A stretch of 24,656 bases of DNA, taken from positions 1 to 24,656 of the forward strand of contig JBHGBC010000086.1 in assembly GCA_041946805.1 (NCBI GenBank). The letters run 5' to 3'. A model generated the notes under the pieces. The model saw only the letters and a list, made by a program, of their open reading frames with translations, made no database searches and was not told the origin of the DNA. The stretch comes from a bacterium (GTDB lineage Bacteria > Hinthialibacterota > Hinthialibacteria > Hinthialibacterales > Hinthialibacteraceae). This document shows, in pieces, positions 2,978-23,437 of the stretch. The position numbers and the translations under genes were made by a program. Numbering within the stretch: position 1 is the stretch's first letter; the number at the start of each line of letters is the position of its first letter.

Positions 2978-3088
2978 GAAATTCGCCTCGGTATAAGGGT
3001 GATAGGAAGACAGGTAAAAATAGTGCCATATGCCCCGGTGGAAAAGGGTGAGGAGAGAAGGATGGGGTGGAGAGGTATAGAAAACAAA

Positions 3089-3115
3089 GTAGGGGCGGAC
3101 CTAGGTGTCCGCCTC
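3089..3115 (+). repeat. GTAG-REP, copy overlapping the 3' end of the RAYT gene
   Basis: GTAG GGGCGGAC CTAGGT GTCCGCCT C: GTAG followed by a hairpin. Confidence 0.85.
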
Positions 3116-3360
3116 TTGCTTTTCTTTTACCATGTTCTCTGGATTTTCATCATCGAAATTCCACCGTGTTGGATTATTGGCAATATAATCACTGATCTCC
3201 ACGAATTCTGTGTGATTGCGGATGATATGTTCATAATAATTACGCTGCCCCAGCCGCTTGTCATATGGTTGCCAATTTGCGGTTCTAATTTTTTGGATGT
3301 ATTCAAAGGTTGTGACGGTTTTAAACCAGTGAATTATACGGGGTAATGAAACCATGTCCC

Positions 3361-3424
3361 GTGGGAGTGGACTGGGATGTCCGCCGGTAGAATTAACGGG
3401 GCGGACACCTAGGTCCGCCCCTAC
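3361..3424. repeat. Inverted REP pair (REPIN) inside the RAYT coding sequence
   Basis: 3398-3424 on minus reads GTAGGGGCGGACCTAGGTGTCCGCCCC. 3361-3385 on plus reads GTGGGAGTGGACTGGGATGTCCGCC, a decayed copy in the opposite orientation. Confidence 0.8.
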
Positions 3425-3726
3425 AAGGAGATCGGATTTTGCGTTTTCGTATTGGATTGTGATTATCCCATGAACATGGTTGGGCATGATTACCTAAGGC
3501 TGGTTGTCAATGGTTGGGAATTTATGTGTCAATTCCAACCACCGTTTTAGAATCATTCTACCGGCATCATTTATATGCATAATTCCATCTATAATTTCGC
3601 CTAGAAGGCATTGCCGGTTTTGTACGCAAATGGTCACGAAGTAGGAACCATTCCGTGAATAATCGTACCCTTTCAGGCGAATAGACCGCCGAAGATGCTT
3701 CTCTGGATCAGAATGGTTTGCGTTCT

Positions 3727-3752
3727 GTAGGGGCGGACCTTTGTGTCCGCCC
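3727..3752 (+). repeat. GTAG-REP at the 5' end of the RAYT core
   Basis: GTAG GGGCGGAC CTTTGT GTCCGCCC. Confidence 0.85.
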
Positions 3753-3753
3753 T

Positions 3754-3808
3754 CATCCCGGAGTGAATGGAATCGATTTAACTCCTGATGTACGCACTTC
3801 CCGGATGA
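3754..3808 (+). repeat. 55-bp element, copy A (inverted copy B at 24601-24656)
   Basis: The first 22 nt match copy B at 21/22 and the last 19 nt match at 19/19; the middle differs. Confidence 0.85.
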
Positions 3809-3943
3809 ACCAATTTTTGATATCGAATCCAATGGAATTCATTATATTATATATTATTTTTTTAAAATATACAACATGCCTTTTCCAAAGATGTGCCAGA
3901 TAATAATTCAATCGTATAAGCAGATGTTCCAGCCAGTAATGCA

Positions 3944-3970
3944 GGGACGGACCGGGATGCCCGCTCCTAC
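3944..3970 (-). repeat. Degenerate GTAG-REP
   Basis: Minus strand GTAG GAGCGGGC ATCCCG GTCCGTCCC. It is inverted relative to the 3727 copy. Confidence 0.6.
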
Positions 3971-3976
3971 AAATTT

Positions 3977-4005
3977 CCCTCACCCTGACCCTCTGGGAGA
4001 GGGGA
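3977..4005 (+). repeat. CCCTCACCC-type palindromic repeat, copy 1 (internally deleted)
   Basis: CCCTCACCCTGACCCTCTGGGAGAGGGGA. Confidence 0.7.
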
Positions 4006-7150: not shown

Positions 7151-7233
7151 TAGCCGGGGTGGGATTCGAACCCACAAGCCGTTTCCGGCAAGGGATTTTA
7201 AGTCCCTCGTGTATACCGTTCCACCACCCGGCC
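7151..7233 (-). tRNA. tRNA-Leu (anticodon TAA), CCA not encoded
   Basis: Cloverleaf: acceptor GGCCGGG/CCCGGCT plus discriminator A; D arm GTG..GG..CAC; anticodon arm AGGGA CT-TAA-AA TCCCT; long variable arm GCCG GAAA CGGC; T arm GTGGG TTCGAAT CCCAC. Confidence 0.96.
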
Positions 7234-7482: not shown

Positions 7483-9105
7483 TCATTTCAGGGCGTCCCA
7501 GACCGGCTGGACCGGTTCGGACGGTTTGTAATCGTGGATTTTCTGCATCAGGCTGGAGCGGGAAATGTTATACAGCACCTTGGAATTGACCAAGTCCGCC
7601 CGGTTCCGGGCCAGTTCCACCTGCAGGTCTTGCACGTCACGGAAGGTGATCTGGCCGAAGTTTTCGAAATCATAGAGACCGTTCTCCAGGTTGATGGTGG
7701 CCAGATCCACGTTCCGCTGCAGGATGTCCATGCGTTGCTGTTGCAGCTGCAGGTCGCGCAGGTCGGTATAGGTTTGTTGCACCAGGTTCCGTTCCGTGTC
7801 CCAGAGGTTGGTCTGGAGTTGTTTGATGTTTTCCTGGGCGGCGCGGACACGGGCCTTGGTGGCGCCGCCGTCGCTGAACGGCCAGGAAAAAAGCAGTCCC
7901 ACGCCCAGGTTTTGCTGGCCCTCGTCGGTTTGGGAAGCGAAGGAGGAGAGGACCAGATCGGGCTGTTGGCCGAGCATGGCGACGCGCAGATCGTTTTCGG
8001 CCTGGCGGATAGACACACGCAGGGATTCCAATTGCAGGTTGGTGGACGTCACCATCTCGACATAAGCCCGCCCACTGAGAGGCAGCGGCTCCACGTTCAG
8101 TTCATCGGTCAGTTGCAGCTGGGTATCGATGGGAATGCCGAGAACGAGGTTGAAGTTTTCGATCGCGTTGCGCAGGCTGCCCTCCAGTTCGATCAGCGTG
8201 GTCTCGTCCTGTAATACGTTGACCTGAGCCTCGCCGACCTGCTGGCGGGAGGCGTTTTCGTACTCGAACTGGGTTTGGCGGATGAACTCGATCCGGCGTG
8301 ACTGCAGCAGGCGCTCCTTTTGAATGACGAGCTGTTCCTGCAGCCGTTTGATGTTCCAGTAATTGTTGATCACTTGTTGGGTGGTCTGCTTCGCGCGCAT
8401 GTACAGAGAATAATCGGAACGGATGGCCGACAGCCGCGAGTTTTCGATCCGCGTGCGGATCTCTTCCCGGGGGCGGGAGTTGAGGGGGAAATTGTAACTG
8501 GCGGACAGGCTGTACCGGTCTTCATAGTTGTTGCCGTCCGGATTGCCGGCGCCCCGGTCGAAGGCCCCTTCGGAGTCGTGTTCATATTGGAACTCCGGCG
8601 CGATTTCGAGGAACGAGCCGTTTTTGAAGGTTTGGGTGTACCGCGGCCCGACCTGGAACAGGGTGTTGTTTTCGTAACTTTTGACCTCATCGGAGATGAG
8701 TCCCAGATTGGGATCGAGGCGGAAGGTCCCCGTGGAGCGGCGGCGGATGCGTTCATCCAGCGAGGAATCGAGATTGAACTTGGCGCGGTAGTTGCTCTCG
8801 GTCAAATCCAGATTGGCCAGACTTTCATCCACGGAGCTTTCCGCGATCCGCATCTGGGGATTCTGTTCCAAGGCGATATCGATGGCCTGTTGCAGGGTCA
8901 ACACTTGGATCTGGCCTTGCTCCCGGAAATCTTCCTGTTTCAAAAGCCCCCCTCCCACGGTGATGTCTTCGATGTTCCGCGCCACGGCGGGCGTCGGATC
9001 CAGGATTTGGGGACGCGCCGGAAGATCCAATTCACCGCACACACCCGCCGAAGGATCACTCACCATTCCTGCTACGCAAATCCAAACCAATTTCTGCCAT
9101 TTCAC
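7483..9105 (-). CDS. TolC-family outer membrane efflux channel (OMF)
   Basis: 540 aa with an N-terminal hydrophobic signal. LTLQQAIDIALEQNP, two OEP-like repeats with coiled coils (QVINNYWNI; LVQQTYTDL), and beta-strand ends YNFPL and FSWPFSDGG. Last gene of an MFP/RND cluster. Confidence 0.9.
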   Translation of the reverse strand: MKWQKLVWICVAGMVSDPSAGVCGELDLPARPQILDPTPAVARNIEDITVGGGLLKQEDFREQGQIQVLTLQQAIDIALEQNPQMRIAESSVDESLANLDLTESNYRAKFNLDSSLDERIRRRSTGTFRLDPNLGLISDEVKSYENNTLFQVGPRYTQTFKNGSFLEIAPEFQYEHDSEGAFDRGAGNPDGNNYEDRYSLSASYNFPLNSRPREEIRTRIENSRLSAIRSDYSLYMRAKQTTQQVINNYWNIKRLQEQLVIQKERLLQSRRIEFIRQTQFEYENASRQQVGEAQVNVLQDETTLIELEGSLRNAIENFNLVLGIPIDTQLQLTDELNVEPLPLSGRAYVEMVTSTNLQLESLRVSIRQAENDLRVAMLGQQPDLVLSSFASQTDEGQQNLGVGLLFSWPFSDGGATKARVRAAQENIKQLQTNLWDTERNLVQQTYTDLRDLQLQQQRMDILQRNVDLATINLENGLYDFENFGQITFRDVQDLQVELARNRADLVNSKVLYNISRSSLMQKIHDYKPSEPVQPVWDALK

Positions 9106-9196
9106 GTGCTGAACTCCCTCTTTTTCATGGTTCTTACATACAATCCCCTTGGATAGGGGGGATCCACAATCCGTTTCACGCCGCCCCCCGCAGGGT

Positions 9197-12100
9197 TCAC
9201 CGCGAGTCCGGGGCCGCGGGGATGCGGGTGTGGTACAGATACGCGTCTTCCAGGTTGGGTTCGGCGGTTTCCGCTCCCGGACCGGGCGGAGTGTCGGCGA
9301 TTACCCGCATCCGGATACCGTCCGCCGTGTAGGATTGCCCCGCCACCTTGTACCGGCGGCGGATCTCATGCCAGGCCGAGTCGTTGGCCAGGGTGAATTC
9401 CCACACTTTGCCTTGCACCGATTCCACCAGTTCTTCCGGACGGCCGGTGAAGAGGATTTTCCCTTCATCCATCAGCGCCATGGTGCGGCAGCTGTGCGCC
9501 ACGTCATCCACGATATGGGTGGAAAGAATGACCACCCGGTCCTGGCTGAGCCGGACCAGCAAATTGCGGAACCGGACCCGCTCCAGGGGATCGAGGCCGA
9601 CGGTCGGTTCGTCGACGATCAACACCTTGGGAGGACGCACCAGGATCTGGGCCAAGCCGATCCGGCGCATCATGCCGCCGGAAAATTGGCCGACCGGAAT
9701 GTCCAGCTGGTCCAACAAGTTGACTTGCTCGAGGGCGCGGAGAATGGCGTTCCGCCGTTCCGTCCGGCGCCGGATGCCTTTCAGCAAGGCGAAATAATCC
9801 AGGTATTGATACGCCGTCAAATCCGTGTACACACCGAAATATTGCGGCAGGTACCCGATCAGTTTCTTCGCGTGCTTGGCCTCGGTTTTCATGTCATATC
9901 CACAGATGGACAGATACCCGCGGGTGGCCTGATCGATCCCGGCCAGCAGCCGCAACAAGGTGGTTTTTCCCGCCCCGTTGGGCCCCAAGAGGCCGAAGAG
10001 GCCTGCTTCGATGGTGAGGGAGACCGTGTCCAGCGCCTTGGTCCGCGCCAAGGTGGACACCGGCTCCTCCGCCGAGGAGAGGGACACGGGGAGGAATCCC
10101 GGCGCGGGCGCCAGGACGGGCAGAGATTGGATCAGGGATTTGCCCCGGGCCGAGATTTTCTCCAGGCGGCTGACCGGATAAATCCGGGTCAGGTGGTCGA
10201 TCTGGACCCTCAACGGTTCCGCGCGGGGCTGGATCCGGCGGTACGCGGTCAGCGTTTCATGGATCCGTTCGCGCCGGCGGCGGCTCCAGAAGACCAGGAT
10301 CCAGCGCCAGCTGGCCACGTAACGAATGGCCCGCAAAGCCAATTTGGCGATATCCTCCACGATGAATGAAAAGCCCGGCACGATCAGAAGGGTGAGGATG
10401 GTCGAGCTGGCCAGCCCGCCGATCACGCAGATGGCGAAGGGGGACCATTGCTCCTCGCCGGTGGCCATGGGGATGAGGCCCAGGATGGCGGTGATGACGG
10501 TCATGAAGATCGGGCGCAGGCGGTGGTAGCCCGAGACCATGATGGCGCGCTGGCGGGGGAAGTGTTTCTCTTTCCGGAGATAGCCGGAGTAGTGAATCAT
10601 CAGGATGGCGCTGTTGGGAAGAATACCGAGCAGGAAAATACCGCCCAGGGCCGCCATCTCGGTGAAGGCGCTGCCGGTGAGCAGGAAGATCCACACAATG
10701 CCCACCAGCGCCAGGGGGATCGCCAGCATGATCACCAACGGCTGGCTGAAGGACTCGAACAGCGCGGCGATGCACATGTACAGCAGGATGAGGGCCAGAA
10801 GCACAATGTTCCACAGGGCCGTCACCATTTCATCCATCTGCCGAGACTGTCCCCCCAGGGTCATCCGGTAGCCGGCGGGAACGGGATAGGTGTCGAGCAG
10901 TTGCTTCACCACCGATTCCACTTCGGAATATTTGACGTTCGGGGCGGTTTCGAACCGGATGCGGCCGATCCGTTCACGGTTTTCGCGCTGGATGTTGCTT
11001 TGGCCCCGCCGGACCTGGAGGGTGCCGATTTCCTCCAGCGACACCGTAGTGCCCAGGCTGGGCGAATAGATCGGGATTTGCTTGAGCTCCTCGAAGCGGA
11101 TGCCTTCCAGTTCCTTGGTTTCGGCTTTGTTGAGATCGTTAGGATCCTCGATCTGGGCGAAAATGATGTCGATGTCCTCGTCGCCCTTTTTCATCTGAAT
11201 GGTGGAGTAATCACCGCGGCGCTGGGCCACCTGGATGGACTGAGCCACCAGTTGCGGGGTGATTTGCAGCACGGCGGCCGTATCGCGGTCCAGTTGGAAA
11301 TGGATTTCCAGGGGGCCGGGCTCGCTTTGGTTGTACACGTCGCGCACGCCGTTGATCTGCATGAGGATTTCGGCGAAATTCTCGGCCAGGGTGTTGATTT
11401 GGTTGTACTCCGGCCCGCGGATTTCGATCTCTCCGCCGCTGCCGGTTTCGACGGGCGGCGTTTCGTTTTCGCCCCGGGTGCGCGAACGGTTAAAGGTCAC
11501 CTCGGCCGTGGCGAAGTTTTCCAGGAACGGCCGGAGTTCCTCCTGAATGGAGGCCGACTCGCGTTTCCGGTTCTCCTTGTCCACCAGGAGGATGCGCAGC
11601 GAGGCGAAATCGTCCTGAATCCAGGAATGGAGGTTCTTGATTTCGGGCACCTGCCTGAGAATCATGTCCTCCACGCGGTTGACGACCTGCAGGGTGTAAT
11701 CCTGTTTGGTGCCGTTGGGGAGGTAGACGAAGACTTCGAAGGAATCCTCGTCCTTGGGGGCCTCCAGGACATCCTGCTGGATGCCGCTCATGGTGTAGTA
11801 ATACGTGTACAGCACCACCAGGATGACGGCGATCAGAAAGCGGACCCGGTGGCGCAGGCAGCTTTTCAGGATGGTCCCATATTTCCGCCGGCACTGGGCC
11901 ATGGTGGGATGAGGAATCTTCCGCAAGACTCCGAGGACCTGGAGCTTGGCCGATGTCCACCGCGTCCGCCAGCGTCCTCCCGAAAAGCGGCCGCCGGAGC
12001 CGGCGAGCAGCGCCTGCTTGGCGTTGAGGAGCTGCAGGACCTTGGCGGTCAGCATCGGGACCAGGGTCAACGCCACCAGCATGGAGATCACGGTGGGGAA

Positions 12101-13504
12101 GATGATCGCCAGCGCCCCTTCGATGAAGGTCAGCCGGATCTGCCCCTCCACGAACACGATGGGCAAAAAGACCACCACGTTGGTCAGGGTCAGGGCGAAG
12201 ATGGCCTTGCCGACTTCATGGCTGCCCACCACCGCCGAGATGATGGGATCCCGGCCGCGCTCGTGATGGCGGAACACGTTTTCCAGCACGACAATGGCGC
12301 TGTCGATCAAGGTGCCGATCCCGACGGCCAGGCCGATCAAGGTAATGATGTTGATCGACATGTTGGTGAAGTACATCGCGTTGAAGGCGGCGATGAGGCT
12401 GATGGGGATGACCAGGCAGATGATCATCGAGACGCGCACGTTGCGGATGAAGAGATACAGCACGCCGATCGAGAGCAGGATGCCGATGAGGGCCAGTTTG
12501 GAGAGTTCCTTGAGCAGGTCCAGGATCTCATCCGCCACTTCCCAGGTCACGGAGAGTTCATAGCCCTCGGGGAGTTCCTTGTTGATCTGGTCAATGACCT
12601 TATGGGTGCGGCGTGAGAGTTCGATGGGATTGACCAGGGCTTCCTTCTCCAGGTCGACGCCCAGGGCCGGCTTGCCGTCCACCCGGCGCAGCCAGCGGCG
12701 GGAGTGGGAGGTGTTTTCCACTACTCCCAGATGGCGCACGGCGATGTTCCCCTCGCCCTTCACAACCACATCCTCGATTTCGGACGTGTCGGAGAACTGC
12801 CCATCCAGCCGGACGAAGTAATTCCGGTCGCCTTCCTCGACATCGCCCAGGAAAACCGGTTCGTTGGCGTAGGTCTGGACCCGGTTGATCACCCGCCAGA
12901 GGGGCACGCCGAATTCGCGCAGGCGGTCCTGCAGGATCGTGACATCCACGGTCCGCCGTTTTCCGCCCCAGATCTCGGCCTGGGCCACGCCATCGATATC
13001 CTGCAGCCGCTGCCGGTAGCGTTCGGTGTCGATCATCTCCAGGTAGGGATCGTCGCGCGGCCCTTTGAGAACCAGGTCCATGAATTCCTTGTTGAACCAG
13101 GAGGTTTCGAAGGGGAAAGCGTCGATGTAGATGGAGCGCCTGGGGAACGTGCGGCGGAAGCGGTCCAGCCGGTCCTGCAGGTCCACGATGCGGTACTTGA
13201 CGTTCGTGCCGAATTCGAACTCGATGGGGAAAAAGCAGCCCCAGCGGCTGCTGAAGACGCGGATGTTCTTCACGTTGGGCAGCTGGGCGATTTCGCCCTC
13301 GATGGGCATGATGATCCGCCGTTCCATCTCCTCGACGCTCATGTTGTCGCGGACCCGGCAGAAAGCAGCCCCGTAGGGAGGGGAAATGTCGGGAAGAATC
13401 TGCATGGGGATCTTGGGCAGCGACACGATGCCGAGCATCACGATCGCGGCGAAGAACATGATGGTGGTTATGGGGCGGTGTACCGAAAACTGGGATAGTT
13501 TCAT
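9197..13504 (-). CDS. RND (AcrB/MdtB-like) permease fused C-terminally to an ABC ATPase domain
   Basis: Single 1435-aa ORF. RND part: FSVHRPIT, GIGTLIDSAIVVLEN, LTLVPML, FESFSQPLVIMLAIPLA, RLRPIFMT, GGLASSTILTL. NBD from about 10213 to 9197: Walker A GPNGAGKT (9962-9985), Q-loop YLPQ, signature FSGGM, Walker B LIVDE, D-loop GLDP, H-loop STH. Confidence 0.93.
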   Translation of the reverse strand: MKLSQFSVHRPITTIMFFAAIVMLGIVSLPKIPMQILPDISPPYGAAFCRVRDNMSVEEMERRIIMPIEGEIAQLPNVKNIRVFSSRWGCFFPIEFEFGTNVKYRIVDLQDRLDRFRRTFPRRSIYIDAFPFETSWFNKEFMDLVLKGPRDDPYLEMIDTERYRQRLQDIDGVAQAEIWGGKRRTVDVTILQDRLREFGVPLWRVINRVQTYANEPVFLGDVEEGDRNYFVRLDGQFSDTSEIEDVVVKGEGNIAVRHLGVVENTSHSRRWLRRVDGKPALGVDLEKEALVNPIELSRRTHKVIDQINKELPEGYELSVTWEVADEILDLLKELSKLALIGILLSIGVLYLFIRNVRVSMIICLVIPISLIAAFNAMYFTNMSINIITLIGLAVGIGTLIDSAIVVLENVFRHHERGRDPIISAVVGSHEVGKAIFALTLTNVVVFLPIVFVEGQIRLTFIEGALAIIFPTVISMLVALTLVPMLTAKVLQLLNAKQALLAGSGGRFSGGRWRTRWTSAKLQVLGVLRKIPHPTMAQCRRKYGTILKSCLRHRVRFLIAVILVVLYTYYYTMSGIQQDVLEAPKDEDSFEVFVYLPNGTKQDYTLQVVNRVEDMILRQVPEIKNLHSWIQDDFASLRILLVDKENRKRESASIQEELRPFLENFATAEVTFNRSRTRGENETPPVETGSGGEIEIRGPEYNQINTLAENFAEILMQINGVRDVYNQSEPGPLEIHFQLDRDTAAVLQITPQLVAQSIQVAQRRGDYSTIQMKKGDEDIDIIFAQIEDPNDLNKAETKELEGIRFEELKQIPIYSPSLGTTVSLEEIGTLQVRRGQSNIQRENRERIGRIRFETAPNVKYSEVESVVKQLLDTYPVPAGYRMTLGGQSRQMDEMVTALWNIVLLALILLYMCIAALFESFSQPLVIMLAIPLALVGIVWIFLLTGSAFTEMAALGGIFLLGILPNSAILMIHYSGYLRKEKHFPRQRAIMVSGYHRLRPIFMTVITAILGLIPMATGEEQWSPFAICVIGGLASSTILTLLIVPGFSFIVEDIAKLALRAIRYVASWRWILVFWSRRRRERIHETLTAYRRIQPRAEPLRVQIDHLTRIYPVSRLEKISARGKSLIQSLPVLAPAPGFLPVSLSSAEEPVSTLARTKALDTVSLTIEAGLFGLLGPNGAGKTTLLRLLAGIDQATRGYLSICGYDMKTEAKHAKKLIGYLPQYFGVYTDLTAYQYLDYFALLKGIRRRTERRNAILRALEQVNLLDQLDIPVGQFSGGMMRRIGLAQILVRPPKVLIVDEPTVGLDPLERVRFRNLLVRLSQDRVVILSTHIVDDVAHSCRTMALMDEGKILFTGRPEELVESVQGKVWEFTLANDSAWHEIRRRYKVAGQSYTADGIRMRVIADTPPGPGAETAEPNLEDAYLYHTRIPAAPDSR

Positions 13505-13507
13505 GAT

Positions 13508-16315
13508 TTAATGCCAGTGCCAACCTCCGCGCATTTGTCCTTGGTTGCGGTTGCGGCGGAACGCCATGGTATTTTCATCCCCTTCCACGATGACGCGCGT
13601 TTCCGAATGGGCGCGGCTTTTTTTGATGGGATCCAGGAAGGGGACCTGCAGCACCTTGTTTTCCGGATCCACCGCCGCGAAGATCGGGCGGTGGGGCACT
13701 GTGAGGTTCAGGGTCTGTTCATCGTGGGCGTCCAGCCAGAGATCGCGGAACACATAATCCATTTCGGTTTCCACGAAAATCGGGACCGCCATCCGCCCGG
13801 CGCCGTGATTCTTGACCCGGATGAGAATCTGGTATTCCACTCCGTTGCGGTCCTTGTTGGGAACGATCTTGGCGTCGGCCTGGACGATCTCGTATTCCGG
13901 CAGCGCGCTTCCCCGGATCCATTGTTCCTGGAACCATTGCAGATCCTGGCCGTAGGCGGCCTGCGCCCGCGCCAGGAAGTCGTCCACCGGCATTTCCCGG
14001 TTCCCATAATCCTGGAAGATGCCCTTGAGCAGATCCCACCATTTGTCGTCCCCAAGCAGATGGTGAATCATGCGGAACAGGCCCTCGCCGCGCACCCGCT
14101 CCAGTTGGGGGTATTCCCCGTTGCGGTGCAGTTCGAGGAGGGAGCTGCGGGAGGCGATGGACAGGGGGAGGCTGGTGTCGCCGCCGACATCGTATTGGAG
14201 TTCCGCGCGCCGCCGCCAGGGATTTTGTTCGAGCAATTTGGAGACATAGCGGGAAAGGTCTTCCTCGAGCCAGAAGGCCAGTTCGCCGGTGGGATGCAGG
14301 GAATAGTCGAAATAGGCGGCGATTAATTTCTTGTAGAATTGCTCGTGCAGGGAGCGAAGGATGTCGGGCAAGCGCAGGAAAAAAGGAATGGTGCGGGGAT
14401 TGCGGTCCAGGCGGTCCAAGAGCCACATGCGTTCGTGCAAATACCCCACCAGGTTTTCGGGAATGAGCAGGATGCCGGGCATCCGGCCGGCGGAGGCGGT
14501 CAGGGCGGGGGTGTGAATTTTCTTGAACCACGAAGCCGTGGCCGGTTCGCCGCGTTCCCGGGCGCGTTGGTCCCCGTCGCGCCGGTCCTCGGCGGGAGCC
14601 ATTTCCGCCGTGGCCTCGTAGGGGATTTCGATCAGGGTGAGTTGCGGCAGAGGGAGGCGTCCCAGTTTGTCGTGCACGTATTCCTGCTGGTCCTTGACCT
14701 CTTCGAGATACACCTGCGCCTGGTAGCCGTGGGACGGCAGATGATAAAACCGGATGTGGTATCCGAATTTTTGGCTGTCGACATACGCGTATTCGCCCCA
14801 GTACATCTCCAACTCGTCGACGAGGTACAGGGTCTTCCACCGTTCCACATGCCAGCCGTCTTCCTCGGTTTCGCTTTCCAGGCGGCCCGCGAATGCCCCC
14901 CGCTGCCCGGGCGGCAGCTGGAGGACCACCTCGGCCTCGAAGAGGTCCTCATCCAGGGGGACCCAATGGTCACGTCGTTCCGTTTTGACCTTCCGCCACG
15001 GGTTGGGATACCAGCTTCCCTCCAGGGCGGTGAAGCGCGGGTGGAAATACGCGGGCCGGCCGTGGTAGCGGATTTCCACTTGTGCTTCGGTTCCGGCGGC
15101 CAGCGGCTCCGGAAAATCGAATTGGAGCCGGGCGCCGGAGCGGGTAAACGGACAAGGTTCGCCGCCGAAGGCGATCCGGTCCACGACAAACCGGGGATCG
15201 AGTTCCACTCCCAGGAATTTCAGGGATTCCCGCGCCACGAAGGTCATCCGTGCTTCCAGGGACAAGCGGTCGTAGACACGGGACGGTTTCAATGTCAGCT
15301 GATATTGCTTGACGTCCACGGGCATGGCGGGGAGTTCCATGCGCAGCCCCTGTTCCCGTTCCTGTTCACTTTGGCGGTCGGCCAGGATCCGTTCCTGATA
15401 TTGGAAGGAAGCCCAGATCATGCCCGCGGCGGTGAGGGTGAGCACGCCGGTCAAAAACAGCCGGTAGGTCCAGCCGAGATGGCGGTCGGGGCGCAGGTTG
15501 GTGAGAAACCGCATCAAGGTGGAAACCGAGAACAGCGATTGGCGCTGCCCCCGGGGCACGATCCAACGCTGGGGTTCCTGCCGCCGCAGGTAAAGGGGGG
15601 CCAGGGTCAAAAATACGATGCCCGCCAGGAAATGAACCGCCAGCGGGAAAAGGTATTCCCCGTACGCGATGCGTGCTCCCAGGGTGGGAGAGGAATCCAT
15701 CAGGCGCTCGAGCAGGGCCGGCACATCGAGAAACACGCGTCCCTGGATGCCCGCGAAGACTAACGCCGTACCCAGCGCCGCGCCCATCAGCAAGGCGGCG
15801 AAGTCGTGCTTGAAGAACGTGCGCATGGCGATCGCGAAGGCCGCGACCGGCACAATGACCGGCAGGTACAGCAGCACGAACGCGGCCCAAAACGGTTGCC
15901 AGACGACGGGCGCGTGCCCGTACAGGTATTGCCAGAGGCCCAGGGAAAACAAGCCCACGGCGCTGAGAGGCAGCATGATCACCAGGACGCCCAAAAGACG
16001 GCCCACCATGATTTCCATGGAACCCGTGGGGAGGGGGAACAGGATTTTGTCCATACCCGTCCGGCCCAGGCGGCCGCACAGGTCGAGGGCCAGGGCAATG
16101 GCGCCCAGGGACAGAATGGCGAGCATCAGCCCGAAACTGGGATGTTGAAAGCTGTAGGCGGAATGCAGGTAATAGCCTTCGCCGGCCCGGGCGAGATAGT
16201 CGGTCCGGGCAAACAAAGATATGGCTCCGATCAGCCCCAACAGCAACCAGAAGCGCCATCCCCGGCTGCTGATGCGGGCTTCGTACCAGGCGATCAACAG
16301 GCTTTTCCGGATCAT
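13508..16315 (-). CDS. ABC-2-type permease domain fused to an extracytoplasmic M1 (aminopeptidase N)-like domain lacking HEXXH
   Basis: The N-terminal ~300 aa are multi-TM (IAWYEAR..., MDKILFPLP....IMVGR). An M1-like beta region follows (QYQLTL, VEIRYHG, WYP), then the C-terminal M1 signature RG..LFRMIHHLLGDD....LLK..F..Y......DDF.......GQDLQWFQEQWIRG..LP. The stop codon is 3 bp from the next start. Confidence 0.8.
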   Translation of the reverse strand: MIRKSLLIAWYEARISSRGWRFWLLLGLIGAISLFARTDYLARAGEGYYLHSAYSFQHPSFGLMLAILSLGAIALALDLCGRLGRTGMDKILFPLPTGSMEIMVGRLLGVLVIMLPLSAVGLFSLGLWQYLYGHAPVVWQPFWAAFVLLYLPVIVPVAAFAIAMRTFFKHDFAALLMGAALGTALVFAGIQGRVFLDVPALLERLMDSSPTLGARIAYGEYLFPLAVHFLAGIVFLTLAPLYLRRQEPQRWIVPRGQRQSLFSVSTLMRFLTNLRPDRHLGWTYRLFLTGVLTLTAAGMIWASFQYQERILADRQSEQEREQGLRMELPAMPVDVKQYQLTLKPSRVYDRLSLEARMTFVARESLKFLGVELDPRFVVDRIAFGGEPCPFTRSGARLQFDFPEPLAAGTEAQVEIRYHGRPAYFHPRFTALEGSWYPNPWRKVKTERRDHWVPLDEDLFEAEVVLQLPPGQRGAFAGRLESETEEDGWHVERWKTLYLVDELEMYWGEYAYVDSQKFGYHIRFYHLPSHGYQAQVYLEEVKDQQEYVHDKLGRLPLPQLTLIEIPYEATAEMAPAEDRRDGDQRARERGEPATASWFKKIHTPALTASAGRMPGILLIPENLVGYLHERMWLLDRLDRNPRTIPFFLRLPDILRSLHEQFYKKLIAAYFDYSLHPTGELAFWLEEDLSRYVSKLLEQNPWRRRAELQYDVGGDTSLPLSIASRSSLLELHRNGEYPQLERVRGEGLFRMIHHLLGDDKWWDLLKGIFQDYGNREMPVDDFLARAQAAYGQDLQWFQEQWIRGSALPEYEIVQADAKIVPNKDRNGVEYQILIRVKNHGAGRMAVPIFVETEMDYVFRDLWLDAHDEQTLNLTVPHRPIFAAVDPENKVLQVPFLDPIKKSRAHSETRVIVEGDENTMAFRRNRNQGQMRGGWHWH

Positions 16316-16382: not shown

Positions 16383-19300
16383 TCAGGTTTCCTGCTGTTC
16401 AGGAATCCATTTGCCCAATCCCAACGCGGCGAAGAACCGCTTGATGGCGGCCATGGCGTCCTCGAAGGCCGCGTACACGATGGGGATGATCACCAGGGTC
16501 AACACCGTGGAAGAGAGCATCCCGCCGATGACCGCCACTGCCATGGGGGCGCGGATTTCGGCGCCCTCGCCGAATCCTAGGGCCAGGGGCAGCAGGCCCA
16601 CCACGGTGGTCAGGGTAGTCATGAGGATCGGGCGCAGGCGGCGGCAGCCGGCGTGCACGATAGCCTCGTTCATATCCTGGCCCATGTCCCGCCGCAAGTA
16701 GTTGATGTAATCCACCAGCACGATGGCGTTGTTCACCACGATGCCAGCCAGCATGATGATGCCGATATAGCCCATCAGGTTGATGGTCTGGCCGGTCAGA
16801 TAGAAGGCCCAGATCACGCCGATGGCGCCCAGGGGCATGGTGAACATGATGACGAACGGATGCATGAGCGACTCGAACAGGGAAGCCATGACCATGTACA
16901 CCAGGATCAGGGCGAGGATCAAGGCGAATTTCAGGCGGTTGAATGAATCCTGGCGCCGTTCCTCCTCTCCTCCGAAGCGGATGTAGTAACCGGTGGGCAG
17001 TTGCATCTCGCCGATTTGCGCGCGGACGGAGGTGATGGCGTCGCTGAGTTTCTGATTTTCGCCCACGTCGGCCAGCACCCGGGCGATGCGTTCCTGTCCC
17101 CGGTGGATGATCTCGCGGGGGCCGGGTTTGATTTCCACCTGGACCAGGCTGCCGAGCGTGACCGCGCGGCCGGTGCCGGTGGGGATCAGGGTATCGAGCA
17201 ATTCGGGAAGGTTCATTTTTCCGTCTCCCAATTGCACGCGGACGTCCTTGGTCTGTTCCACGTCCTGCAGGCTGGTGGCCACCAGGCCGCGCAACTGGCT
17301 CTGCACCAGCGAGATGAGTTGCTGCTGATCCAGGTTGTATTCATTCATGAGGACCCGGTCCGGGATCAGGTGTACTTCCGGATTCCCTTCCAGGATGGTG
17401 GTGCGGACGTTGGCCACTTCGGGGATCAAATCCATCCGGCTTTTGACCTGTTGCGCCAGGTCGGCCAGCGTTTCCAGACTGCGTCCCCGGATTTCCACCA
17501 CGATGGCGGCCTTTTCGGAGCCGATGAGCGTGGCCAGCGAGGTCTGGGAAAGCAGGAAGGTGATATCCAATCCATTGATATCCTTGGCCCGGGGTTCGAG
17601 GTATTCGATGATCTGGGGCACGTTCATTTTCGCCCCCTTGCGCAAGGAGACCATCAGCTCGGCCGTATGGGACCCTTCCGGCTCCTCGTCCACCGCGCCG
17701 GTGTCTTCCGGCTTGGGGCCGATCCGGGTGAAGATATGTTCGATGTTCTCGCCCAAATCCTGGGAAAGCCACCCTTCGATGATCTTGGCCGCCCGCTCGG
17801 TTCCTTCCAGCCGCGTCCCGGCCGGCATGCGCAGTTTGACGATGAACTGGGATTCGGCGGCCTGGGGGATGAATTCCTGCTTCAAGTCATCCAGGATGGG
17901 ATAGCACGAACAGCACAGCAACACGACCACCACGCATACGAGAAGCCGGTGCCGCATCGTCCAGGCCAGGAAGCGGGGATAGAAGCCGGAGTATTCCTCC
18001 TCCACATCCATGACCTGCTTGAGATACCGCGAGCAGAGCGCGGGGATCATCATGAGCGCGACCACCAGCGAGGCCATCAGCGAGAAAACCACGGTCAGCG
18101 CCTGTTCCTTGAACAATTGCGCGGTCACGCCGCCCATGTAGGCGATGGGCAAAAAGACCACCACCGTGGTCAGCGTGGAGGAAGTGATGGCGGAAGCCAC
18201 CTCGCCCGTGCCGGTCATGGCGGCCTGATAGGGCGAATCGCCGATCTGCCGCCGCCGGAAGATGTTTTCCACGACGACGATGGCGTTGTCCACCAGCATC
18301 CCGCAGCCCAGGGCCAGGCCGCCCAGGGTCATGATGTTGAGGGACAGGCCCATGAAGTACATCAGGTTGAAGGTCGCCAGAATGGATACGGGGATGGAGA
18401 GCGAGACGATCAAGGTCGACCGGAAATTGCGCAAGAACAGCAACAGAATCAGGGCGGCCAGTCCGCTGCCCTGGATGGCGTTGCTCTTTACTTCGGAAAT
18501 GGCCTGGTTGATGAACAGCGACTGATCGTAGGCGATCACCGCCGTGACATCCTTGGGGATGAGGCTGGGTTCGGCGCCGGTGGACAACCATCCTTCCTGA
18601 TCGTTTTGGGGTTTGTTCTGCTGCTGGGATTGGGCGGTCAGAACCGCGAGTTCCTTGTCCTTGCCCAGGAATTCCCGCACCGTCCGCACCACTTCGACCG
18701 TGTTGCTGCCCGCTTCTTTGTAAAGAGAAATGCCCACGCCGGCCTGGCCATCCATGTGGACCGCGTCCACCGGCTCCTGAAATCCCCAGGTCACCTCGCC
18801 CAGGTCGGTCATGTAGATGGGGACGCCGGAGGAGTAGCCGACCACGGTGCGGACCACCTGGTCGAGGTTCTTGATTTCCCCCACGGCGCGGATCATGTAG
18901 CGCTGGTTGCCTTCCTCCACCCAGCCGCCCGAGGCGCTGACGTTGGCCTGATCGACGGCCTGAGAGACGTTGGCGAGAGTCAGGCCATAGAAATGGAGGA
19001 GCTCCGGGTCCAGCTGGCATTTCATCTCGGGGATCAGACCGCCTGTCACTTCCGCGCGGGCGACCCCGGAAAGGCGTTCCAGGGCGGGGCCGATGGTGCG
19101 GTAGGCCAGATAGCGGACTTCATCCAGGCCGCGGGTGCTGTATAAGCCCAGGGTCATGATGGGCAGGGCGTTGGGATCGTAGCGGAGGGTTTGGATCTCT
19201 TCGATTTCCTCGATGTTGCTGCCCTGGACGTTTTTCTTCACTTCCAGCAGGGCGAAATCCATGTCGGTGCCCCAGTTGAAGTCGATGATGATGGCGCCGG

Positions 19301-19658
19301 AATCGGCCCGGGACACGCTGGATACCTGGTCCACGCCCTTGATGGTGGTCAACCGTCCCTCGAGCGGTTCGACCACGATGCGCTCGATTTCCTGGGGCGC
19401 CAGCCCCGGGGCGTCAGCCTTCACGGTAATCCGGGGAGCGCGCAGATCGGGGAAGAGGTTGGTGGGCAATTTGTTGAGCGAAATCCACCCCAGCATGATC
19501 ACGCCGATGAAAAACATGCTGATGGTCACGGGATAGCGCACGGCGAAGGCGGCGGCGCCCATGCCCCGCTTGTTCACACCCTCTTGTTGAGTATCCACCG
19601 GTTGCAGTTCGTCTCCGGGTGAGGAATTCAAGGATAGAGTGTCTTTTTCACTCGTCAT
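16383..19658 (-). CDS. RND (AcrB/MdtB/SwrC-like) efflux permease
   Basis: FAVRYPVT, LFPDL, GMLVDNAIVVVENIFR, FESLMHPFVIMFTMP, GIVVNNAIVLVD, RLRPILMTT, GGMLSSTVLTL. The ORF-track start at 19781 overlaps the upstream gene, so ATG 19658 was chosen (alternatives 19703 and 19563). Confidence 0.93.
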   Translation of the reverse strand: MTSEKDTLSLNSSPGDELQPVDTQQEGVNKRGMGAAAFAVRYPVTISMFFIGVIMLGWISLNKLPTNLFPDLRAPRITVKADAPGLAPQEIERIVVEPLEGRLTTIKGVDQVSSVSRADSGAIIIDFNWGTDMDFALLEVKKNVQGSNIEEIEEIQTLRYDPNALPIMTLGLYSTRGLDEVRYLAYRTIGPALERLSGVARAEVTGGLIPEMKCQLDPELLHFYGLTLANVSQAVDQANVSASGGWVEEGNQRYMIRAVGEIKNLDQVVRTVVGYSSGVPIYMTDLGEVTWGFQEPVDAVHMDGQAGVGISLYKEAGSNTVEVVRTVREFLGKDKELAVLTAQSQQQNKPQNDQEGWLSTGAEPSLIPKDVTAVIAYDQSLFINQAISEVKSNAIQGSGLAALILLLFLRNFRSTLIVSLSIPVSILATFNLMYFMGLSLNIMTLGGLALGCGMLVDNAIVVVENIFRRRQIGDSPYQAAMTGTGEVASAITSSTLTTVVVFLPIAYMGGVTAQLFKEQALTVVFSLMASLVVALMMIPALCSRYLKQVMDVEEEYSGFYPRFLAWTMRHRLLVCVVVVLLCCSCYPILDDLKQEFIPQAAESQFIVKLRMPAGTRLEGTERAAKIIEGWLSQDLGENIEHIFTRIGPKPEDTGAVDEEPEGSHTAELMVSLRKGAKMNVPQIIEYLEPRAKDINGLDITFLLSQTSLATLIGSEKAAIVVEIRGRSLETLADLAQQVKSRMDLIPEVANVRTTILEGNPEVHLIPDRVLMNEYNLDQQQLISLVQSQLRGLVATSLQDVEQTKDVRVQLGDGKMNLPELLDTLIPTGTGRAVTLGSLVQVEIKPGPREIIHRGQERIARVLADVGENQKLSDAITSVRAQIGEMQLPTGYYIRFGGEEERRQDSFNRLKFALILALILVYMVMASLFESLMHPFVIMFTMPLGAIGVIWAFYLTGQTINLMGYIGIIMLAGIVVNNAIVLVDYINYLRRDMGQDMNEAIVHAGCRRLRPILMTTLTTVVGLLPLALGFGEGAEIRAPMAVAVIGGMLSSTVLTLVIIPIVYAAFEDAMAAIKRFFAALGLGKWIPEQQET

Positions 19659-19725
19659 GGTCGTGATCCACGTGTATTGCCCGAAGGGGAATCCAATCAG
19701 CATTCCGCCCCGGGCGGATTCCTTC

Positions 19726-20664
19726 CTAGGTGAACCATTCCGCGGTGCGCCGGAGGCGGCGGAACAGATAATCGAGCACAAAACCCACCAGTCCGAACAC
19801 GAAAAACCGGTTCATGAGCATGGGCATATAGGGAGATATCTTATTGAAAATCAAGGATATGGCGGAAAAAATGAGCATGGGCGCCGACAAGGCCGTATTC
19901 ATGGAAGCGGACCCCATCCCGTCCTGGCGGGGGGCCGGGGGAATGACCGGGAAGGTGGAATAAAAGATCTGGACCGGCCCCAGTTGTTGCAACCAAAAAA
20001 AGTGGATGCCGAATATCAACAGCGCCACGAGACCGGTGGCCATGCTATGGCGGGTGAAGGTGGAAATCAGCACCGTGACCGATCCCACCGCGAACGAGGA
20101 AGTCACCACAAGGGGGATGATCAACCAGCGCCCCTCGGTGTACGCGATGAACCGGCTGAAGAAGAATACCACGGCCGTGCACAGCGCCAACTGCCACAAA
20201 GTGATGGTGATCAGTTGGATCACAATCAATGAGCTCCGGCGGATGGGCTGGCTCCAGAGGATTTCCAGCGTATCTTCATCCCGTTCCCGCGGCAGCAGAC
20301 TCATGGCGGTCAGAATGGTCACCACACAGAAATATATATAGCAGTAATATAGCAAATCCCGCGGATTATCCGCCAGATTGCGGGAGATCACCCAGCCGAA
20401 AAAGGCGAAGGCCCCGATGAGCGAGAGAAACACCTCGATGTGGAGAATCCGCCGGGTGGTGTATAGAAACAACTTGAACCAATAGCTGGTTTCCCACCAT
20501 ATCCATTGGATTCCATTCTTTGCGAGCCATCCGGCGTTCTTCCCGGCTTGCCCCAAACGCCGGAACCAGCCCTCGCGGGTGGAGGGTCCATAGGGAAGGT
20601 CGTGTGTTCGTTCCAATCCATCCATCATGATTCCCACGGCCGAGCGGCCTTCTGTGTTGATCAA
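19726..20664 (-). CDS. ABC-2-type transporter permease
   Basis: About six hydrophobic segments and the coupling-helix motif LLPRERDEDTLEILWSQPIRR. Directly downstream of an ABC ATPase. The start may be ATG 20628. Confidence 0.82.
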   Translation of the reverse strand: MINTEGRSAVGIMMDGLERTHDLPYGPSTREGWFRRLGQAGKNAGWLAKNGIQWIWWETSYWFKLFLYTTRRILHIEVFLSLIGAFAFFGWVISRNLADNPRDLLYYCYIYFCVVTILTAMSLLPRERDEDTLEILWSQPIRRSSLIVIQLITITLWQLALCTAVVFFFSRFIAYTEGRWLIIPLVVTSSFAVGSVTVLISTFTRHSMATGLVALLIFGIHFFWLQQLGPVQIFYSTFPVIPPAPRQDGMGSASMNTALSAPMLIFSAISLIFNKISPYMPMLMNRFFVFGLVGFVLDYLFRRLRRTAEWFT

Positions 20665-20800: not shown

Positions 20801-21679
<879 letters not shown>

Positions 21680-21943: not shown

Positions 21944-23437
21944 TCACCGGGGGGGATTCGAGGATTGGACCGGTTTGGCGAGGCTTTCAAAATTCACATC
22001 CTCCCGGACGGTGATATTGACGTCCACTCCATTAGTCAGGGTTTCGTATCCCAACACCACCAGCAGGTCGCCCTCGCGCAATCCCTCGACGATTTCCACC
22101 TGTTCCCGGTTCTCGATCCCCAGAGTGATGACCCGCTCCTCCGCGATGTAGGGAATGTCCTGCAGGTTGGCGGAGTCAGACCGGTTTCCGGGCAGGATCG
22201 CCGGGCCGGTGGCTTCGGGCACGGCGTCCGAGGCCACGGCCACATTTTCGAGGCGCCCCGCCATGACCAGTTGTTTGTTCCCGCCGTCCGGGACGGGAGC
22301 ATCGATCCGCAGTTCGCTGGTGGCCCCGCGGATTTCATCCTGGGGTTTTTCTTTCACCACGTAGACCACCTGGCGGTTGTTGCGCAGCAGCACCAGTTCG
22401 CGGGGGATGCTGATGGCGTCGAGACGTTCTTCGGTGATGATTCGGGCCTTGGCGAACATGCCCGGCCGCAGTTCATGGTTCGGGTTGTCGAGCAGCACAT
22501 TGACGGTATATGTGCGCGTGTTGGCGTTGAGGGCCGTGGAAATGTCGGAGACGGTTCCCTTGTAGAGCGTCCCCGCGCGCGAGTAGATTTCCACCTCCAC
22601 GTCCTGTCCGACCTTCACCGCTTCCAGGTCTTTGGCGGGCACGTCGAGAGCCGCGTAAACCTTCTCGATATTGGCCACGCGGAACAGGATGGTCCCGCTG
22701 CCCACGGTTTGGCCGTTCAGCAAGGTCAGGTCGGTTTCGCCCCCCTGCTTCTGGGAGGTGGAAACGCTTTGCTTGGCCGGCAACAGCACGCCGTCAAAGG
22801 GCGCCAGGATCGGCACTTTTTCCAATTCCTGACGCATTTTTTGGAGGGCCATCTGGCGGGATTCGATATTACGGAGCGTATTTTGGTACTGGTTTTCCTG
22901 CTGGATGCGCTTCAAGACCGCCTGATCGTATTCATACTTGGAAATTGCGCCCCGCGCGTACATGGCCTTTTTGAATTCCTCATCCTTGTAGGCCTGCATC
23001 AGGGTGGCGCTGGCGGGGCGGACGCTTTCCGATGCCAGCCGCAGCTGCAAATCGCCCTCGTTGATGTTGAGGTTCAGCTCCCGGTCGTCCATCCGGGCCA
23101 AAACAGCATTTTTTTTGACCTCATCCCCTTCCAGCCAGCGTTGGGTGAAATAAATCCGGCCGGTCATCTCGGGTTTGATCTCGATTTCCTTGATGGGCAC
23201 CACGGTCCCCACGGCCTGCAAGTAGGCGTACATCCGGCCGCGGTTCACCTGCTGGACGGTTACAGGAATTTTGAACTTGAGTTTCTCCGGTTTTCCCCAT
23301 GTCCCGGCGTTTTCTCCCGGATTCCCGCTCTTGGCCGTGGCTCCCACACTCTGCGCCGTTTCCGTATTCCGGCCGCAACTCAACACCAGCGAAATTGCCA
23401 AGATTAACAACATGCCTGTCAATGCCGATTTCTTCAT
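21944..23437 (-). CDS. Efflux RND periplasmic adaptor (membrane fusion protein), probable lipoprotein
   Basis: Lipobox-like LVLSC. Lipoyl half-motifs EGDEVKKNAVLARMD and ILAPFDG flank a coiled coil. Also TRTYTV...DNPNHELRPGMFA and VEIVEGLREGDLLVV.G. Confidence 0.93.
   Translation of the reverse strand: MKKSALTGMLLILAISLVLSCGRNTETAQSVGATAKSGNPGENAGTWGKPEKLKFKIPVTVQQVNRGRMYAYLQAVGTVVPIKEIEIKPEMTGRIYFTQRWLEGDEVKKNAVLARMDDRELNLNINEGDLQLRLASESVRPASATLMQAYKDEEFKKAMYARGAISKYEYDQAVLKRIQQENQYQNTLRNIESRQMALQKMRQELEKVPILAPFDGVLLPAKQSVSTSQKQGGETDLTLLNGQTVGSGTILFRVANIEKVYAALDVPAKDLEAVKVGQDVEVEIYSRAGTLYKGTVSDISTALNANTRTYTVNVLLDNPNHELRPGMFAKARIITEERLDAISIPRELVLLRNNRQVVYVVKEKPQDEIRGATSELRIDAPVPDGGNKQLVMAGRLENVAVASDAVPEATGPAILPGNRSDSANLQDIPYIAEERVITLGIENREQVEIVEGLREGDLLVVLGYETLTNGVDVNITVREDVNFESLAKPVQSSNPPR

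Follow-up and report, generated by a model that had tools for sequence, protein, structure and literature searches.

An RND permease joined in one chain to an ABC-2-type ATPase, within a seven-gene cassette of Hinthialibacterota

The fusion gene and its distribution

In a 24,656-nucleotide stretch of bacterial DNA (contig JBHGBC010000086.1 of assembly GCA_041946805.1, family Hinthialibacteraceae, phylum Hinthialibacterota; hereafter the window), a gene on the minus strand (9197..13504) codes for a permease of the resistance-nodulation-division (RND) type whose chain runs on into the nucleotide-binding domain (NBD) of an ATP-binding cassette (ABC) transporter. A first-pass annotation, made from the sequence alone, had proposed such an in-frame fusion, with the ATPase on the cytoplasmic side of the permease chain, and this architecture holds. 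The open reading frame (ORF) begins with ATG, contains no internal stop and specifies a protein of 1435 amino acids (aa). In this protein, the Pfam family ACR_tran matches residues 4-1048 in a single stretch (E 1.5e-162, profile positions 2-1019 of 1021), and ABC_tran matches residues 1158-1301 (E 1.2e-26, 94.4 bits against a cut-off of 25). Because two Pfam domains at such E-values share one frame, chance is not an issue. Together with the full-length relatives described below, these matches establish the gene product as a genuine single chain in which an RND permease is followed by a C-terminal ABC-2-type ATPase.

The RND permease domain (residues 4-1048; 10361..13495) has the pattern of 12 transmembrane (TM) helices and two large periplasmic loops, as judged from the Pfam match, from hydropathy and from alignments to the PDB entries of MdtB and 7b8p_A. 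Hydropathy estimates place its hydrophobic segments at 11-29, 330-493, 554-572 and 897-1053, in agreement with 12 helices and with a large loop behind each of TM1 and TM7. Of the PDB sequences, MdtB matches best (9lyq_B, E 1.1e-65), and the domain stays below the NCBIfam subfamily cut-offs (481.7 against 1250 bits for RND_permease_2, and 271.8 against 940 for TIGR00915). The linker that follows (residues 1049-1096, 48 aa; 10217..10360) comprises an extension of TM12, the hydrophobic stretch WRWILVFW and a polybasic stretch, as read from the sequence and from a model described below; the linker text quoted in the first-pass annotation, YVASWRWILVFWSRRRRERIHETL, is present in the translated protein as given. 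The remainder of the chain (residues 1097-1435; 9200..10216) is the NBD with its C-terminal beta-domain, assigned from Pfam, NCBIfam, Foldseek and its motifs. As had also been noticed, there is no methionine from residue 1045 to the Walker A motif. At the head of the NBD a single alternative start lies in frame, a TTG at L1098, which has no Shine-Dalgarno-like sequence upstream, so separate translation of the NBD from an internal start is unlikely.

All six catalytic motifs of the fused NBD can be read in the protein: Walker A GPNGAGKTT (1174), Q-loop YLPQ (1218), signature FSGGM (1274), Walker B VLIVDE (1294), D-loop GLDP (1303) and H-switch STH (1327). All 17 orthologues compared retain the Walker A lysine, the Q-loop glutamine, SGGM, the DE of Walker B, GLDP and the H-switch, and the key residues of the domain are invariant in a 49-row alignment. 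The NCBIfam models that match best are of the DrrA, GldA and NodI types, all below their curated cut-offs (for example, 175.8 against 312.45 for TIGR01188, DrrA, and 160.8 against 402.6 for TIGR03522, GldA). By sequence, the best PDB matches are ABCA3, ABCA7 and ABCA1; by fold, Foldseek finds TM_1403 (E 1.9e-21), ABCA7 and ABCA3 (about 1e-18) and NosF (7osf_B, 1.6e-17). From these sequence and fold matches we assign the domain to the ABC-2 type, with the usual small C-terminal beta-domain.

We searched 41 genomes (the window's own and 40 relatives) with a 535-aa junction query that spans TM8-12, the linker and the NBD. Within the window's own family, its own genome included, 18 of 20 genomes have junction-spanning matches in open frames of 1429-1501 aa; in one case (G004) the query matched as two pieces within one 1448-aa frame. 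The query had no match in the remaining two genomes, which are 94% (G006) and 82% (G017) complete. Junction-spanning matches were also found in 4/4 and 2/2 genomes of two further families, two of these matches being cut by contig ends, so that the fusion occurs in 24 of 26 genomes across the order. Among 35 genomes of the phylum, 23 match the query at E<=1e-90, all of them within the window's order, and 0/9 genomes from three other families of the phylum match at this threshold. One genome (G020) carries two copies of the fusion, in frames of 1501 aa (G020:C64:6907-8376) and 1429 aa (G020:C97:12340-13926).

Eight full-length relatives, with 62-89% identity, occur in records of metagenome-assembled genomes (MAGs) titled 'Candidatus Omnitrophota bacterium', 'bacterium' or 'uncultured bacterium', and one fusion homologue carries the source name 'Candidatus Hinthialibacter sp.'; Hinthialibacterota were formerly placed within Omnitrophota (PMC9324843, in the part of the article accessible to us). 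In raw-read assemblies, a Logan contig from a different study covers 9205-11364 in one piece, with 56 substitutions and 0 indels. A further Logan run gives complete cover with 0 differences, but it is possibly the window's own source and is not independent.

Of 7997 candidates scored in a wider search with residues 960-1435 against proteins of 789-2512 aa, 3004 were hits at E<=0.001. Among the matches listed, all 120 carry both PF00873 and PF00005, and their source names include Omnitrophota, Calditrichaeota, Bacteroidota (Fulvivirga, Portibacter, Imperialibacter), Gemmatimonadetes and Chlorobi. These listed matches form two size classes, a short class of about 1410-1470 aa, in which 97-100% of the query region is covered and to which the window's fusion belongs, and a long class of about 1540-1595 aa, in which 56-72% is covered. 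Database names for the family are generic ('efflux RND transporter permease subunit' or 'ATP-binding cassette domain-containing protein'), and the family is therefore easily overlooked.

A clean split orthologue was sought among shorter proteins, of which 8000 candidates were scored and the best 120 listed. Only four of the listed proteins cover at least 97% of the linker-plus-NBD region. Three of these (631, 782 and 689 aa) also carry PF00873, and the fourth, of 380 aa, is probably cut, since its contig is only 1427 nt long. Thus, no convincing stand-alone NBD orthologue was found among the shorter-protein matches listed, and close relatives keep the two domains fused, an outcome opposite to one that the first-pass annotation had named as fatal to its proposal. 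One more distant relative, from another family of the same class, has the same cassette order (G028:C12:159500-179400, locus L061, about 8259-15235), with a stop after the RND frame and an NBD that is collinear but lies in two other frames, with an in-frame stop. In the same locus the gene corresponding to X935 (see below) is also split into two frames, the first hitting ABC2_membrane_2 (E 1e-5) and the second, weakly, Peptidase_M1. This copy may reflect decay or an assembly error, and it presents no clean split form. Although it shows that an interrupted version exists, the explanation of the window's gene as a misassembly, a lost stop codon or a gene in decay can practically be dismissed in view of the intact frames across the order, the eight full-length MAG relatives and 107 full-length proteins from several sources, the conserved loci, linker and NBD motifs, and the other study's contig, which crosses the junction without indels. 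The second outcome that the first-pass annotation had named as fatal, a stop or chimeric join in the reads, likewise failed to appear.

The junction itself was compared in an alignment of 107 proteins of at least 1380 aa (of 121), together with the free NBD of the cassette (see below). In all size classes there is an insertion between NBD beta-strand 1 (ending LTRIYP) and beta-strand 2 (beginning KALD). In the window's protein it measures 45 aa (residues 1111-1155; 10040..10174), identified from the alignment, the model and motif reading, and the free paralogue has only 'DG' at this place. The size and position that had been proposed for the insertion are thus correct, but it is not a peculiarity of this gene, being the short form of a family-wide feature. 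The short class has a conserved SWRWxxxFWS after the RND domain, followed by basic residues, and an insertion of about 45 aa with a conserved PxPG(F/I)xP. The long class has about two hydrophobic helices after the RND domain and about four inside the insertion.

An AlphaFold2 model of residues 886-1435 (49-row alignment, mean predicted local distance difference test score (pLDDT) 83.5, predicted TM-score (pTM) 0.58) has a helix at 1021-1064, so that TM12 reaches 1064, short helices at 1067-1073 and 1075-1087, and NBD beta-strand 1 at 1099-1108. The insertion is modelled as a helix (1113-1126) and a low-confidence loop (1131-1153) that contains the PxPG(F/I)xP motif. In Wzt, a gate helix extends between NBD beta-strands 1 and 2 and lies at the cytosolic membrane interface (PMC6379404, accessible part). 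The insertion of the fused NBD, with its predicted helix 1113-1126, occupies the same topological place as in the type V ABC exporters Wzm-Wzt and TarGH, but the two are unrelated in sequence, and here the insertion consists of 45 aa with a PxPGFxP loop and, in the long class, of membrane helices; the cassette described next also lacks polysaccharide genes. We infer that the beta1-beta2 insertion touches the membrane or a domain within it.

The seven-gene cassette

The fusion is the sixth of seven genes, all on the minus strand. In order, these encode a periplasmic adaptor or membrane-fusion protein (21944..23437; HlyD_D23 E 4e-26, and 167.3 bits against a cut-off of 94.9 for TIGR01730, RND_mfp), a free ABC NBD of 292 aa (20801..21679; Pfam), an ABC-2 permease with 6 hydrophobic segments (19726..20664; hydropathy and Pfam ABC2_membrane_2, E 5.8e-11), a second, unfused RND permease that we call RND2 (16383..19781; ACR_tran E 4.2e-233), a 935-aa protein that we call X935 (13508..16315), the RND-NBD fusion, and an outer-membrane channel of the OEP/TolC family (7483..9105; Pfam OEP E 5.5e-34). 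Only 3 nt separate the X935 stop from the fusion's ATG. The longest ORF of RND2 starts at a TTG (19781) and overlaps the ABC-2 permease gene by 56 nt (19726-19781). Alignments to homologues start no earlier than residues 37-71, which probably puts the true start some 40-70 codons past this TTG, downstream of the permease stop.

The seven genes have the same order and strand in 16/16 related loci, with the qualifications that one locus ends at a contig end ahead of the channel gene and that in one case the small permease came to light through blastp on ORFs alone. Within the genome, no NBD is closer to the fused NBD than its free paralogue (46% identity, E 1.4e-69; the next NBD has 39% identity, E 5e-41), and the two are mutual closest paralogues there. 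The motifs of the free NBD, like those of its fused partner, are intact in 17/17 orthologues, so that both NBDs retain the full hydrolytic set.

X935 joins the fold of a 7-TM ABC-2-type permease to a domain with the fold of M1 aminopeptidases, an assignment based on AlphaFold2, Foldseek and the ESM Atlas. In the model (17 rows, pLDDT 79.4, pTM 0.75), a helix at the N-terminus is followed by seven long membrane helices, which extend to residue 325, and by a soluble region in three parts. Foldseek matches this soluble region to M1 aminopeptidases (puromycin-sensitive aminopeptidase, IRAP and ERAP1; E 5.6e-21 and on, at 11-14% identity), and Pfam detects Peptidase_M1 in 14 of the 17 orthologues. 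With the N-terminus in the cytoplasm, the seven helices would place the M1-like domain in the periplasm. The motifs HExxH and GxMEN occur in 0/17 orthologues, and the domain is therefore probably a dead peptidase with a binding or scaffold role in the periplasm. The membrane part resembles ABC-2 permeases of PF12679 in the ESM Atlas (TM-score 0.62-0.76), and the nearest Atlas cluster (0.76) bears the automatic name 'ABC transporter permease/M1 family aminopeptidase'. Proteins of that name have the same two-part build, but X935 differs in the missing peptidase motifs.

Three other features of the window lie downstream of the cassette. A tRNA gene (7151-7233, minus strand; Rfam RF00005, 58.8 bits), the only Rfam hit in the window, stands directly behind the channel gene. 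An AT-rich island at 3001-4000 (GC 0.444, whereas the other bins have 0.56-0.63) contains a pair of neighbouring ORFs on the minus strand (3494..3832 and 3101..3487), whose translations may represent a split REP-associated or IS200-like tyrosine transposase. A sulfatase gene occupies 5465-6823 on the minus strand (Pfam Sulfatase, E 2.4e-58); a specialisation on sulfated polysaccharides has been inferred for the candidate phylum of the nearest named relatives (PMC9324843, accessible part).

A possible two-stage exporter

The cassette is a variant that combines two known kinds of system, tripartite RND pumps and ABC-2 exporters. The reading that we favour, at a probability of roughly 45%, is that a tethered ABC-2 module with two permeases and two ATPases and an RND pump of two paralogues form a hard-wired two-stage exporter. 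The fused NBD would pair with its free paralogue, and this pair would power a heterodimeric ABC-2 module composed of the plain ABC-2 permease and the permease part of X935. The covalent tether would hold the ABC module against a probably heteromeric, MdtBC-like RND pump, made up of the fused paralogue and RND2, which would share the single adaptor and the single outer-membrane channel. The ABC module might spend ATP to extract or flip a postulated amphiphilic substrate, or to drive the periplasmic M1-like domain; the substrate, or mechanical work conveyed through the M1-like domain, would then be passed to the RND porter domain, with export out through the channel.

Stoichiometry bears on this model. 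An RND trimer has three-fold symmetry and an NBD pair two-fold symmetry, and three NBDs carried on one trimer could not all form dimers; a 2:1 RND heterotrimer plus the free NBD would resolve the mismatch. MdtBC assembles as MdtB2C, and by analogy the cassette paralogues may form a heterotrimer. Like the cassette, MdtABC-TolC has two RND paralogues, there encoded adjacently, with one adaptor gene, and the cassette paralogues are sisters. Unlike the cassette, it has no ABC components, and MdtB keeps the residues DD and K where the fusion has DS and N (see below). AcrAB-TolC and other HAE-1 systems share with the cassette the full-length ACR_tran fold, the adaptor and outer-membrane channel genes and equivalents of D407, R971 and T978; the fusion differs from them in its C-terminal ABC ATPase, in the absence of D408 and K940 equivalents and in scoring far below the NCBIfam subfamily cut-offs. 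The mdtABC genes provide an example of a two-transporter operon (PMC8277102, accessible part).

A predicted contact between the fused NBD and the membrane domain of X935 gives weak support to the pairing proposed above. In the one complex prediction made, the two scored 0.44, and the best of 3 controls scored 0.00; at least 68% of contacts recur between runs, and partner pLDDT is at least 73. Of 157 solved complexes, 116 reach the mark used for such scores, as do 2 of 215 mismatched pairs, and scores of 0.60 or less hold only 18 of the 157 solved complexes together with both mismatches that pass.

Several observations count against the two-stage exporter. The complex score of 0.44 is weak, and physical contact between the ABC-2 permeases and the RND proteins appears in none of the results. 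Pfam ABC-2 families are found in at best 5 of 17 X935 orthologues (5, 3, 2 and 1 for the individual families), and a profile-profile comparison by hhalign of the X935 membrane domain with the plain ABC-2 permease was poor (probability 18%, E 0.0013), so that this route to linking the two permeases was abandoned and the evidence came from the fold search instead. In addition, the long class has extra membrane helices around the NBD that the window's gene lacks, and the contact geometry may therefore differ between the classes.

The alternative that fares best, though we consider it unlikely, is that an independent ABC-2 exporter and an independent RND pump use the same adaptor and channel without any hand-over, the fusion serving only co-assembly or a fixed stoichiometry. 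That one adaptor gene and one channel gene accompany two kinds of inner-membrane transporter fits this explanation, and so does the existence of adaptor-dependent ABC-2 pumps that have no RND component. The E. coli exporter YbhGFSR has an adaptor, two unlike permeases and two NBDs (PMC13739795, accessible part). The cassette resembles it in having an adaptor, two ABC-2-type NBDs and two different ABC-2 permeases, where X935 is assigned as such by fold likeness (TM-score 0.62-0.76) and weak Pfam hits. The two systems differ in that YbhF consists of tandem-fused NBDs, according to the accessible part of the same source, whereas the cassette has one NBD free and one on the RND protein; YbhGFSR also lacks both the RND and the M1-like domain. 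The Bacteroides uniformis 'ABC-type pump' encoded by seven genes (BACUNI_01926-01932) was considered as a studied relative and rejected: five of its products are a transporter, an HlyD adaptor, an ABC ATPase and two ABC-2 permeases (PMC12694919, supplementary table 4), which makes it, as far as the accessible part of that article goes, an ordinary adaptor-dependent ABC-2 system without RND. On the other hand, a covalent link conserved across several phyla and size classes, the fixed gene order and an NBD insertion placed at the membrane interface suggest more than co-regulation, and the paralogous pairs of NBDs and of RND proteins point to an old functional unit.

A further comparison is offered by NosDFY, in which an ABC-2 module acts on a partner in the periplasm. 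NosF is among the top structural neighbours of the fused NBD (7osf_B, E 1.6e-17, and 7o0y_B), and the cassette permeases match or resemble PF12679, the family to which NosY belongs. The Nos system has a role in copper delivery and, unlike the cassette, has no RND, adaptor or TolC component.

The proton relay and the role of ATP

The usual view assigns tripartite RND pumps to proton drive alone and ABC pumps to a distinct, ATP-driven class. The first-pass annotation had supposed that the fusion couples both energy sources, ATP and proton-motive force (PMF), in one chain. This supposition remains a hypothesis in our analysis, in which neither cassette RND has the equivalents of D408 and K940 of AcrB, and the operon supplies two ABC-2 permeases and a second NBD.

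The proton relay of AcrB comprises D407, D408 and K940, together with R971 and T978, and substitution of triad residues abolishes export (PMC8277102, accessible part). HMMER alignments to MdtB and 7b8p_A place D401-S402 of the window's protein (TM4; 12299..12304) opposite DD and N964 (TM10; 10613..10615) opposite K, so that the triad reads D401, S402 and N964. Among the 107 full-length fusions, the D407 equivalent is D in 107/107 and the D408 equivalent is never D (S in 21, N in 79, T in 4, A in 2 and K in 1), and the K940 equivalent is N in 107/107. The equivalents of R971 (R997) and T978 (T1002) are each kept in all 107. In RND2, the relay segments read VDNAIVV and VVNNAIV in 17/17 orthologues. 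Eight other RND genes are present in the genome, of which 6 have DD, with K in 4, R in 1 and an unaligned residue in 1 at the lysine position; the remaining two are heavy-metal-like or divergent.

A FastTree phylogeny (LG+gamma, 1012 columns, 90 rows) was built from 65 fused RND domains, 17 RND2 proteins and the 8 other RND proteins of the genome; 42 of 63 long-class proteins (every third was kept) and 14 proteins shorter than 1380 aa were left out, and the tree was rooted on the two most divergent rows, with a small outgroup sample. The fused domains form one clade, RND2 is its sister and the pair excludes the other RND proteins, with support of 1.0 at each of these three nodes. This topology suggests that the fusion arose once and long ago and that the two RNDs stem from an old duplication within the system. 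Placed on the tree, the relay change falls on the stem shared by the two cassette paralogues.

These patterns could suggest that the RND cycle is powered directly by the fused NBD, with or without its free paralogue, in place of the PMF. Both cassette RNDs have lost the same two positions (107/107 fusions and 17/17 RND2 proteins), and did so on their common stem, when the other HAE-1-like RNDs of the genome keep DD (6/6) and 4 keep K. However, loss of the relay as a sign that ATP has replaced protons is weakened by the relay residues of RND2-like genes elsewhere, for which we took the best such genes of five class-level genomes without the fusion. A plain adaptor-RND pair (G026:C942, locus L062, 1618-6215, minus strand) has DN in TM4 and NN in TM10 (LLDNSIVV and VVNNAIL), and another RND there (G026:C1100) has TN and NN. 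No ABC family was found among the four flanking ORFs of the pair that were scanned, two of which belong to sigma-54 and to proline synthesis (pyrroline-5-carboxylate reductase), with one giving no Pfam match. The relay pattern is thus not tied to ABC partners, and on sequence grounds the relay of the cassette RNDs is non-canonical without being peculiar to ABC-linked RNDs. Moreover, since the D407, R971 and T978 equivalents are kept throughout, a relay with one carboxylate could still operate. The operon also supplies proper ABC-2 permeases for the NBDs, and we know of no equivalent of the ABC coupling helix on RND permeases. Direct replacement of the PMF by ATP therefore seems to us quite improbable. 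The broader proposition that the cycle of this RND lineage is driven or gated by ATP hydrolysis in the attached ABC domain, with ATP and protons both used or ATP only, and with the D408/K940 relay given up before the cassette paralogues diverged, is somewhat easier to entertain but still doubtful. As both cassette RNDs lack the D408 and K940 equivalents, and as two ABC-2 permeases and a second NBD are encoded alongside them, the fused NBD is more likely to belong to an ABC-2 module than to drive the RND protein directly.

It is also improbable, and the least favoured of the functional alternatives, that the NBD is purely regulatory, with ATP binding or hydrolysis gating a proton-driven RND pump or sensing the energy state for it, and no ABC transport taking place. 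The presence of both superfamilies in one chain is compatible with this, and conserved catalytic motifs fit a switch as well as a motor; but two ABC-2 permeases are always co-encoded, and both NBDs have complete hydrolytic motifs in 17/17 orthologues, as in working transport ATPases.

In the full-text literature, in which subscription journals were not covered, we found neither a published description of an RND-ABC fusion or an ATP-driven RND nor a paper on the ABC-2/M1 permease family, and the accessible part of the Hinthialibacterota article (PMC9324843) has 0 occurrences of 'RND' or 'efflux'. The fusion's conserved covalent join of RND and ABC proteins across several phyla is 'Rosetta-stone' evidence that the two kinds can act as one machine. 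The cassette as a whole offers a natural system in which to test the coupling of two export steps, from cytoplasm to periplasm and from periplasm to the outside, and the fusion raises the testable possibility of an input of ATP into the RND cycle.

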